64,000 nt of DNA, taken from the IMG/VR virus record IMGVR_UViG_3300032116_000009; one strand, written 5' to 3'. Positions 38,337 through 38,408 of the stretch are shown here, in pieces. Each line of letters opens with the position of its first letter. Positions within the stretch are counted from its first letter, which is position 1. The notes beneath the pieces are model-generated. The model was not told the DNA's origin. It did not search any database and saw only the letters and a program-made list of their open reading frames with translations. The stretch comes from a virus. Taxonomy: Duplodnaviria; Caudoviricetes. The position numbers and the translations under genes are program-made.

Positions 38337-38408
38337 AGCCCTCAGTCGGATTTGAACCAACGACCTACTCATTACTAGTGAGTTGCTCTACCACTGAGCT
38401 ATAAGGGC
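38337..38408 (-). tRNA. tRNA-Thr(AGU)
   Basis: ACUCA-CUAGUAA-UGAGU; acceptor GCCCUUA/UGAGGGC. Confidence 0.9.

Follow-up and report, generated by a model that had tools for sequence, protein, structure and literature searches.

The window analysed here, a 64-kb stretch of viral DNA, comes from a T4-like freshwater cyanomyovirus with psbA-type RNA motifs, nrdAB and tail genes. Its GC content of 37% agrees with the AT-richness assumed in a preliminary description of the sequence. The closest isolates, S-SCSM2R and DSL-LC02/03, match at 75–81% identity over less than 20% of a 22-kb query, so that the window belongs to none of the isolates compared; nor is it S-CRM01, which has Thr(GGU) and Thr(UGU). 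The tRNA genes identified by ARAGORN, 28 in number, all lie on the minus strand, as does a permuted cyanobacterial-type tmRNA; Rfam added one CAT tRNA (~29 in all). About 24 tRNAs, the tmRNA and one HNH ORF form a co-oriented array at 35330..39931 (minus strand; ARAGORN, Rfam and Pfam), in which the spacers from Met to Arg measure 0–3 nt. Pfam analysis of ten ORFs near the array returned HNH, ferritin, lysozyme, SegE, carbamoyltransferase, 6PGD and two radical SAM/SPASM matches. RNA-library contigs run across the His/Thr junction (38349-38437) and across Arg-Trp-Leu (37764-38253), and the array is probably transcribed as polycistronic precursors.

The tRNA-Thr(AGU) gene lies at 38337..38408 on the minus strand and is 72 nt long with no encoded CCA. 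It was called by ARAGORN as tRNA-Thr(agt), matched Rfam RF00005 with 70.4 bits (E 2.4e-13), which places it among the top tRNAs of the window, and was folded by ViennaRNA into a perfect cloverleaf; the tRNA proposed at this position is thus real. Its 5' end abuts tRNA-His(GUG) (38409..38481, minus strand) with a 0-nt spacer, and tRNA-Gln(UUG) (38266..38336, minus strand) begins right after the Thr discriminator, as seen from Rfam coordinates and the sequence. The wobble base, A34, was read directly at 38376 (minus strand) and is invariant in all homologues found; G35 and U36 were read at 38375 and 38374. The anticodon stem ACUCA/UGAGU (5 bp) closes a 7-nt loop (positions 32–38, CUAGUAA) with U33-A34. 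The molecule also has G1-C72, C2-G71, discriminator U73, A37, G18G19 and a normal T loop. The ThrRS identity elements in E. coli and T. thermophilus are G1-C72, C2-G71, G35 and U36, and position 34 is no determinant. All four elements are present in tRNA-Thr(AGU) and are kept in 12 of its 13 sequence variants, the exception being L066, in which G1-C72 is broken.

The preliminary description had listed an anticodon not borne out by reads among the grounds for rejecting its claim, and other DNA data agree with the anticodon. A contig from freshwater metagenome DNA spans 37095-38913 with zero differences and retains the A at 38376. Some 10 studies of lake or freshwater samples supplied at least 14 DNA runs in which 0.89–0.97 of the sampled array words are present, far above chance.

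Conservation was assessed by searching IMG/VR with the exact 28-nt anticodon arm of tRNA-Thr(AGU). The identical arm was found in at least 69 contigs, and no IMG/VR contig has a version of it in which A34 is replaced by C, G or T. A second search, anchored on the 3' end of His and the 5' half of Thr and thus outside the arm, retrieved 50 contigs; AGT was read in 49/49 evaluable cases, one being cut off. The arrays of the AGU carriers are diverse, their aligned parts being only 74–86% identical to the window, and the alignments of three complete relatives with the window extend over 9–19 kb at 75–77%. Among 70 copies of tRNA-Thr(AGU) the 13 variants have 99.3% of cells paired, with compensatory double changes at 5 pairs in the acceptor and T stems; the observed level of covariation was reached by 0/500 shuffles. 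Two more Thr(AGU) families (6 newly found genes) occupy the His-to-Gln slot. They diverge from the window's type in the D arm, the anticodon stem and the T arm, and both keep AGU and fold into cloverleaves. The gene is real and evolutionarily maintained, neither an error nor a one-off.

The body of tRNA-Thr(AGU) is ~90% identical to that of the Thr(UGU) of the marine cyanophage Syn19, with the whole anticodon stem-loop replaced. A cellular origin of the arm was considered and rejected, as the 28-mer occurs in only 2 of 185,579 species genomes, neither of them cyanobacterial. The same 28-nt arm was also observed on other tRNA bodies outside cyanophages, namely in a freshwater actinobacterial MAG contig of ~45% GC (L109; 2830-2902 and 3199-3271) and in a 3.5-kb scaffold of Herbiconiux daphne (L110; 1778-1853). 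Thr(CGU) and Thr(AGU) of the MAG are near-identical paralogues with differences confined to the anticodon arm. Within the family of the MAG, a generic Thr-AGU arm was found in just 1 of 41 genomes, and the Thr(AGU) of the MAG may therefore stem from a phage or from mis-binning.

For a less biased survey, IMG/VR was searched with a tRNA-His 23-mer that is also present in S-CREM1, which has no Thr tRNA in the slot; at least 69 contigs matched. Among the 69 matches listed, 38 carry Thr(AGU) in the position following His, 4 carry Thr(GGU) and 27 lack a Thr tRNA there, and A34 is the majority state of the His-to-Gln Thr slot in these His-anchored matches. The array order Met-His-[Thr]-Gln-Trp-Arg(ACG) is the same as in S-PM2 and S-CREM1, in both of which the slot is empty and Gln follows His directly. 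S-CRM01 has Met-His-Thr(GGU) in the slot and Thr(UGU) elsewhere, and UGU is the only Thr tRNA in DSL-LC02, Syn19, S-H25 and S-M1. None of the isolates checked carries AGU; they use UGU and/or GGU for Thr. Together, the AGU/GGU/empty survey and the isolates show that the slot, bounded upstream by tRNA-His, is polymorphic and accessory and accommodates a reader of Thr codons ending in a pyrimidine.

The preliminary description placed the gene in a set of A34 tRNAs extending beyond Arg(ACG), and all three members were found by ARAGORN in the phage. tRNA-Arg(ACG) (38035..38109, minus strand; A34 at 38077, loop CUACGAA) is of the canonical TadA substrate type, is the sole CGN reader in the array and is present in 62/70 related loci. 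tRNA-Leu(AAG) (38186..38262, minus strand; A34 at 38228, loop CUAAGGA) is 77 nt long with A73 and an encoded CCA, and is class-I sized with a variable loop of 4–5 nt. It occurs in only 6/70 related loci (relatives L008, L019, L029, L037 and L068) and alternates in the same slot with Leu(GAG) (L009, L022, L031, L033, L043, L045, L069, L070 and L073). The AAG and GAG versions have the acceptor, D and T arms in common and wholly different anticodon stems. Further short Leu(CAA/UAA/UAG) genes were noticed in relatives, and the type I tRNA-Leu of Streptomyces is leucylated (PMC6614811). Cyanobacteria and their phages were reported to have no A-starting anticodons except AAG (Leu) and ACG (Arg) (Limor-Waisberg et al., PMC3152331). 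As these two form the normal cyanobacterial pair, only AGU lies outside the cyanobacterial repertoire. The idea of an unusual set therefore holds for AGU but not for AAG, which is normal in cyanobacteria, sporadic among the related loci and exchangeable with GAG. A tRNA-like family beside tRNA-Val was also observed, called 'His(atg)' (L010, L027, L030, L065 and L066) or 'Val(aac)' (L019 and L029) by ARAGORN and seen in G003 and many His-anchored loci as well; given their odd loop context, these A34 calls are probably no ordinary decoders.

The Thr tRNA partners were compared in eight related long contigs, four of them complete. All eight have Thr(UGU), which mostly lies at a distance, in a mini-cluster of the form Met-Leu(UAA)-Thr(UGU). 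In 4/4 long AGU carriers (G001, G002, G003 and G103; three complete and one 76%-complete), Thr(UGU) is present and Thr(GGU) is absent. Thr(UGU) was not seen within the 64-kb window, where AGU is the only Thr tRNA. Besides a dubious 'His(ATG)' call, the A34 tRNAs of the four carriers are only Arg(ACG) and Thr(AGU).

Codon counts over 74 ORFs of the window gave ACT as 50% of Thr and CTT as 31% of Leu codons, and both codons are indeed frequent in the phage genes, as had been noticed by eye. Across the AGU carriers, the Thr codon shares are 0.46–0.50 (ACT), 0.30–0.34 (ACA), 0.12–0.14 (ACC) and 0.06–0.08 (ACG), so that exact pairing by AGU and UGU covers ~80% of Thr codons (ACU and ACA). In the related estuarine S-CREM1/CB0101 pair, ACT stands at 24.4 in the phage versus 6.3 per thousand in the host (PMC9964418). 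Codon usage was rejected as a discriminator of carriers and non-carriers. Relatives without AGU (one GGU carrier and three with no second Thr tRNA) have an ACT share of 0.43–0.51, with the same usage and GC3. In addition, GTT (0.50) and GGT (0.47) are as frequent in the window as ACT, yet their boxes are served only by U34 tRNAs. Both observations speak against a codon-match account. Tuning to U-ending codons, as first suggested, is thus retained insofar as ACU is the main Thr codon, but it does not separate carriers from non-carriers. Codon frequency explains what tRNA-Thr(AGU) reads, not why some phages carry it; the same ACT share in relatives lacking it marks the tRNA as accessory.

Deamination of A34 to inosine appears as G in cDNA. 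The RNA-library contig at 38349-38437 (depth 4.5) reads A at 38376; the Arg A34 control likewise reads A, and the material may be precursor or DNA. Two metatranscriptomes contain 32–42% of the array. A contig from a second RNA run spans Arg A34 (38077) and Leu A34 (38228), both of which read A, and the expected Arg change from ACG to ICG is absent. As the Arg(ACG) contig also keeps A, the RNA-library contig material is probably precursor or DNA. A contig from a third RNA run (37665-38076) was seen to end one base before Arg A34 at 38077, which may reflect an assembly break at a mixed A/G (edited) position or a coincidence.

The question of whether a host TadA or a phage deaminase edits these tRNAs had been raised at the outset. 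Neither PF14437 (TadA-like) nor PF00383 (dCMP/cytidine deaminase) matched anything in five related records, of which three are complete. A family-agnostic scan for the CDA zinc motif, carried out in six frames on the window and three complete genomes, gave only two spurious hits, in ORFs of 61–63 aa. With no phage-encoded deaminase found by these Pfam and zinc-motif scans in the window and three complete relatives, any A34 editing would need a host enzyme. E. coli TadA accepts UACG only, and the consensus for S. pyogenes TadA, which also edits Leu(AAG), is YUAMGRA (PMC11472039). The Arg loop CUACGAA fits both, and the Leu loop CUAAGGA exactly fits the relaxed YUAMGRA. Judged by these E. coli and S. 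pyogenes consensus loops, relative to which cyanobacterial TadA may be more relaxed, the Thr loop CUAGUAA fails at positions 35 and 36 (G35 and U36 versus C/A35 and G36). Cyanobacteria carry Leu(AAG) (PMC3152331), which is why their TadA may have a wider range than that of E. coli.

Precedents for an unmodified A34 are available. As summarised in PMC8072771, inosine is formed in the Arg and Leu A34 tRNAs of Oenococcus oeni but not in its Thr(AGU) (Rafels-Ybern 2019). Mycoplasma capricolum, according to the account of it in PMC3711424, has an unmodified Thr(AGU) beside Thr(UGU), and the AGU tRNA reads ACA worst. With an orthogonal AGU tRNA in E. coli, decoding of ACU exceeded that of ACC about eightfold, and no reading of ACA or ACG was detectable (PMC11066159). 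On the strength of these three precedents, the unmodified base is the more likely state. Taken together with a loop that has neither the C/A35 nor the G36 needed by bacterial TadA, and with no deaminase encoded, A34 of the phage tRNA most likely stays unmodified, as in Mycoplasma and Oenococcus.

On the best explanation, the gene makes a phage tRNA-Thr that is functional and under selection. Its AGU anticodon would form Watson–Crick pairs with ACU, the commonest Thr codon of the phage, and the tRNA would serve as an accessory reader; we assign this reading a probability of about 0.6. The tRNA would be transcribed inside the polycistronic array, and host RNase P would cut at the abutting tRNAs. 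Cleavage at Gln +1 would free the Thr 3' end for host 3' processing, after which CCA would be added by the host. We infer that host ThrRS charges the product. The modification t6A37 is probable, since U36-A37 is present. The A34 tRNA is predicted to read ACU by Watson–Crick pairing and ACC weakly, with Thr(UGU) covering ACA and ACG. AGU and the genome-encoded Thr(UGU) would then supply one exact reader each for ACU and ACA.

Because AGU occupies the place that GGU holds in a minority of relatives, it can be regarded as the reader of pyrimidine-ending codons shifted to U. Compared with G34, A34 would move capacity from ACC to ACU and would favour the AT-rich phage mRNAs over those of a presumed ACC-rich (GC-rich) host. 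Such selective aid to phage messages is in line with the 'maximise the gap' idea for cyanophage tRNAs (PMC3152331). Since codon usage does not predict which phages carry the gene, retention of AGU probably depends on some property of the host. Candidates are how much Thr(GGU) the host supplies, or whether it has lost this tRNA (compare PMC11726456), and a defence directed at tRNAs (PMC10264068).

An unlikely alternative is that A34 is deaminated to inosine by a relaxed host TadA or an unrecognised phage enzyme, so that the tRNA reads ACU, ACC and ACA in a eukaryote-like manner, parallel to Arg(ACG). It would account for the absence of Thr(GGU) wherever AGU is present in the long contigs, a pattern typical where I34 replaces G34 (PMC8879553), and it draws on the Arg box of the same array being served by ACG alone. 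Cyanobacteria already have two A34 tRNAs, ACG and AAG (PMC3152331), and their TadA may accept loops beyond UACG. Against this, the Thr loop matches none of the known bacterial TadA substrates at positions 35 and 36 (PMC11472039), and O. oeni, the one bacterium with Thr(AGU) examined in the work summarised in PMC8072771, leaves it unedited. The deaminase searches in the window and three complete relatives point the same way, as does the presence of Thr(UGU) in every long contig examined, which gives ACA its own reader; the low-depth RNA-library contig also reads A at position 34, though it may be precursor or DNA. A bolder version, which we consider rather improbable, is that AGU becomes IGU in infected freshwater picocyanobacteria through a broadened TadA or an unrecognised phage factor and that the AGU/GGU/empty polymorphism marks hosts able or unable to edit it. 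If true, the phage would import eukaryote-like I34 decoding for a second codon box.

It is also doubtful, though compatible with the preferred accessory-reader account, that the main driver is sustaining translation when host tRNA-Thr is cleaved, depleted or unexpressed, the A34 loop escaping nuclease- or modification-dependent recognition of the host G34/U34 tRNA-Thr. Presence or absence of AGU irrespective of codon usage is what would be expected of a host-dependent accessory gene. The replaced anticodon stem-loop on a Thr(UGU)-like body, with the same pattern in the AAG and GAG Leu tRNAs, fits as well; changes in the anticodon loop allow phage tRNAs to evade toxins that target tRNAs (PMC10264068), and a missing host tRNA blocks cyanophage Syn9 (PMC11726456). 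On the other side, no tRNA-Thr-specific nuclease in cyanobacteria was found reported in the literature searched, and the near-complete tRNA set already buffers depletion without A34. Finally, a decaying or non-functional copy, a sequencing or assembly error, or a mischarged tRNA recoding ACU is extremely improbable as a class. Nothing positive favours it apart from the rarity of A34 tRNAs (PMC11066159) and the tRNA-like oddities in the same arrays. Independent assemblies and more than 70 contigs agree, the stems evolve in a compensatory manner and all Thr identity elements are intact. Recoding would be ruinous with ACU making up half of the Thr codons throughout ordinary conserved genes. Error and decay are ruled out by the arm-identical contigs, the consistent AGT obtained with the outside anchor and the covariation.

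Eukaryotic tRNA-Thr(IGU), made by ADAT2/3, resembles the phage tRNA in having an AGU gene, no G34 isoacceptor and a retained UGU partner. ADAT2/3 is sequence-independent, whereas bacterial TadA is loop-specific. The phage differs in that no ADAT-like gene was found in it. Among cellular systems, the tRNA-Thr(AGU) of M. capricolum has the same anticodon in an AT-rich, ACU-rich genome, with a Thr(UGU) partner, no Thr(GGU) and no dedicated deaminase, as described in PMC3711424 and PMC11066159 (after Andachi 1987 and Inagaki 1995). In these accounts it is, unlike the phage gene, an essential decoder in a reduced cellular genome without TadA; the phage gene is accessory beside a full host tRNA set, and the host presumably has TadA. 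The combination of AGU and UGU without GGU, characteristic of Mollicutes/Oenococcus-type Thr(AGU), was found in all four long AGU carriers.

[quoted passage not shown] In that summary, editing to I34 affects the tRNAs with G36 (Arg and Leu) but spares Thr(AGU), a rule that predicts the same split for the phage loops. The O. oeni set is cellular (Bacillota) with modification measured, whereas that of the phage is viral and known from genes, with AAG in few relatives. Published cyanomyovirus sets (S-PM2, Syn9, S-RSM4, S-CRM01 and S-CREM1; PMC3152331, PMC9964418) likewise supply AT-rich anticodons for a GC-richer host, but are U34-dominated and were reported without A-starting anticodons except AAG and ACG.

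In the literature searched, no paper was found on A34 tRNAs in phages or on an AGU tRNA in cyanophages. An A34 tRNA-Thr is a known rarity of Mollicutes and Oenococcus; what is new is the cyanophage setting, and the useful feature is the natural A34/G34/empty polymorphism rather than a new mechanism. Bacteria very rarely have A34 tRNAs beyond Arg(ACG), and how such tRNAs decode is poorly known; AGU is fixed here across a broad and abundant group of freshwater cyanophages. This corrects the published view of cyanophage sets as free of A-starting anticodons other than AAG and ACG. The alternation of A34, G34 and an empty slot in otherwise similar genomes offers a ready comparison for the benefit of A34 to a virus, the range of cyanobacterial TadA and the tuning of phage tRNAs.

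Several other elements were recorded in the window. The permuted cyanobacterial-type tmRNA inside the array (37131-37381, minus strand; RF01851, 116.6 bits; ARAGORN 37097-37396) encodes the tag ANNIVAFSRSKSTALV, and tmRNAs with other tags were seen in related contigs (L005, L008, L014, L033, L042 and L043). The CAT-anticodon tRNA at 37054-37125 (minus strand; Rfam, 48.8 bits) is the third CAT tRNA of the window and is absent from the ARAGORN list because it overlaps the tmRNA call of that program. A conserved tRNA-like gene at 38569-38653 (minus strand; Rfam tRNA, 46 bits) was labelled 'gc' by ARAGORN, with an oversized anticodon region and no anticodon assigned; either a tRNA mimic or a tRNA with an intron could explain this. 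Counterparts were seen at 1142-1227 of L033 and 4091-4175 of L067. tRNA-Ile(UAU), a tRNA rare in bacteria, lies beside a CAT tRNA at 30073-30145 (minus strand) and occurs in 26/70 related loci, some forms being 89–93 nt long. It was reported absent from cyanobacteria (PMC3152331).

Rfam also detected a manA RNA inside the array (36427-36634, minus strand; 100 bits) and, on the same strand, PhotoRC-II (10441-10534), upstream of a photosystem gene, and wcaG (29052-29156). All three are cis-regulatory motifs typical of cyanophages. The HNH endonuclease of the array is encoded at 37526-37996 (minus strand), and two adjacent radical SAM/SPASM proteins of 413 and 432 aa lie between tRNA genes at 30431-32963 (minus strand).
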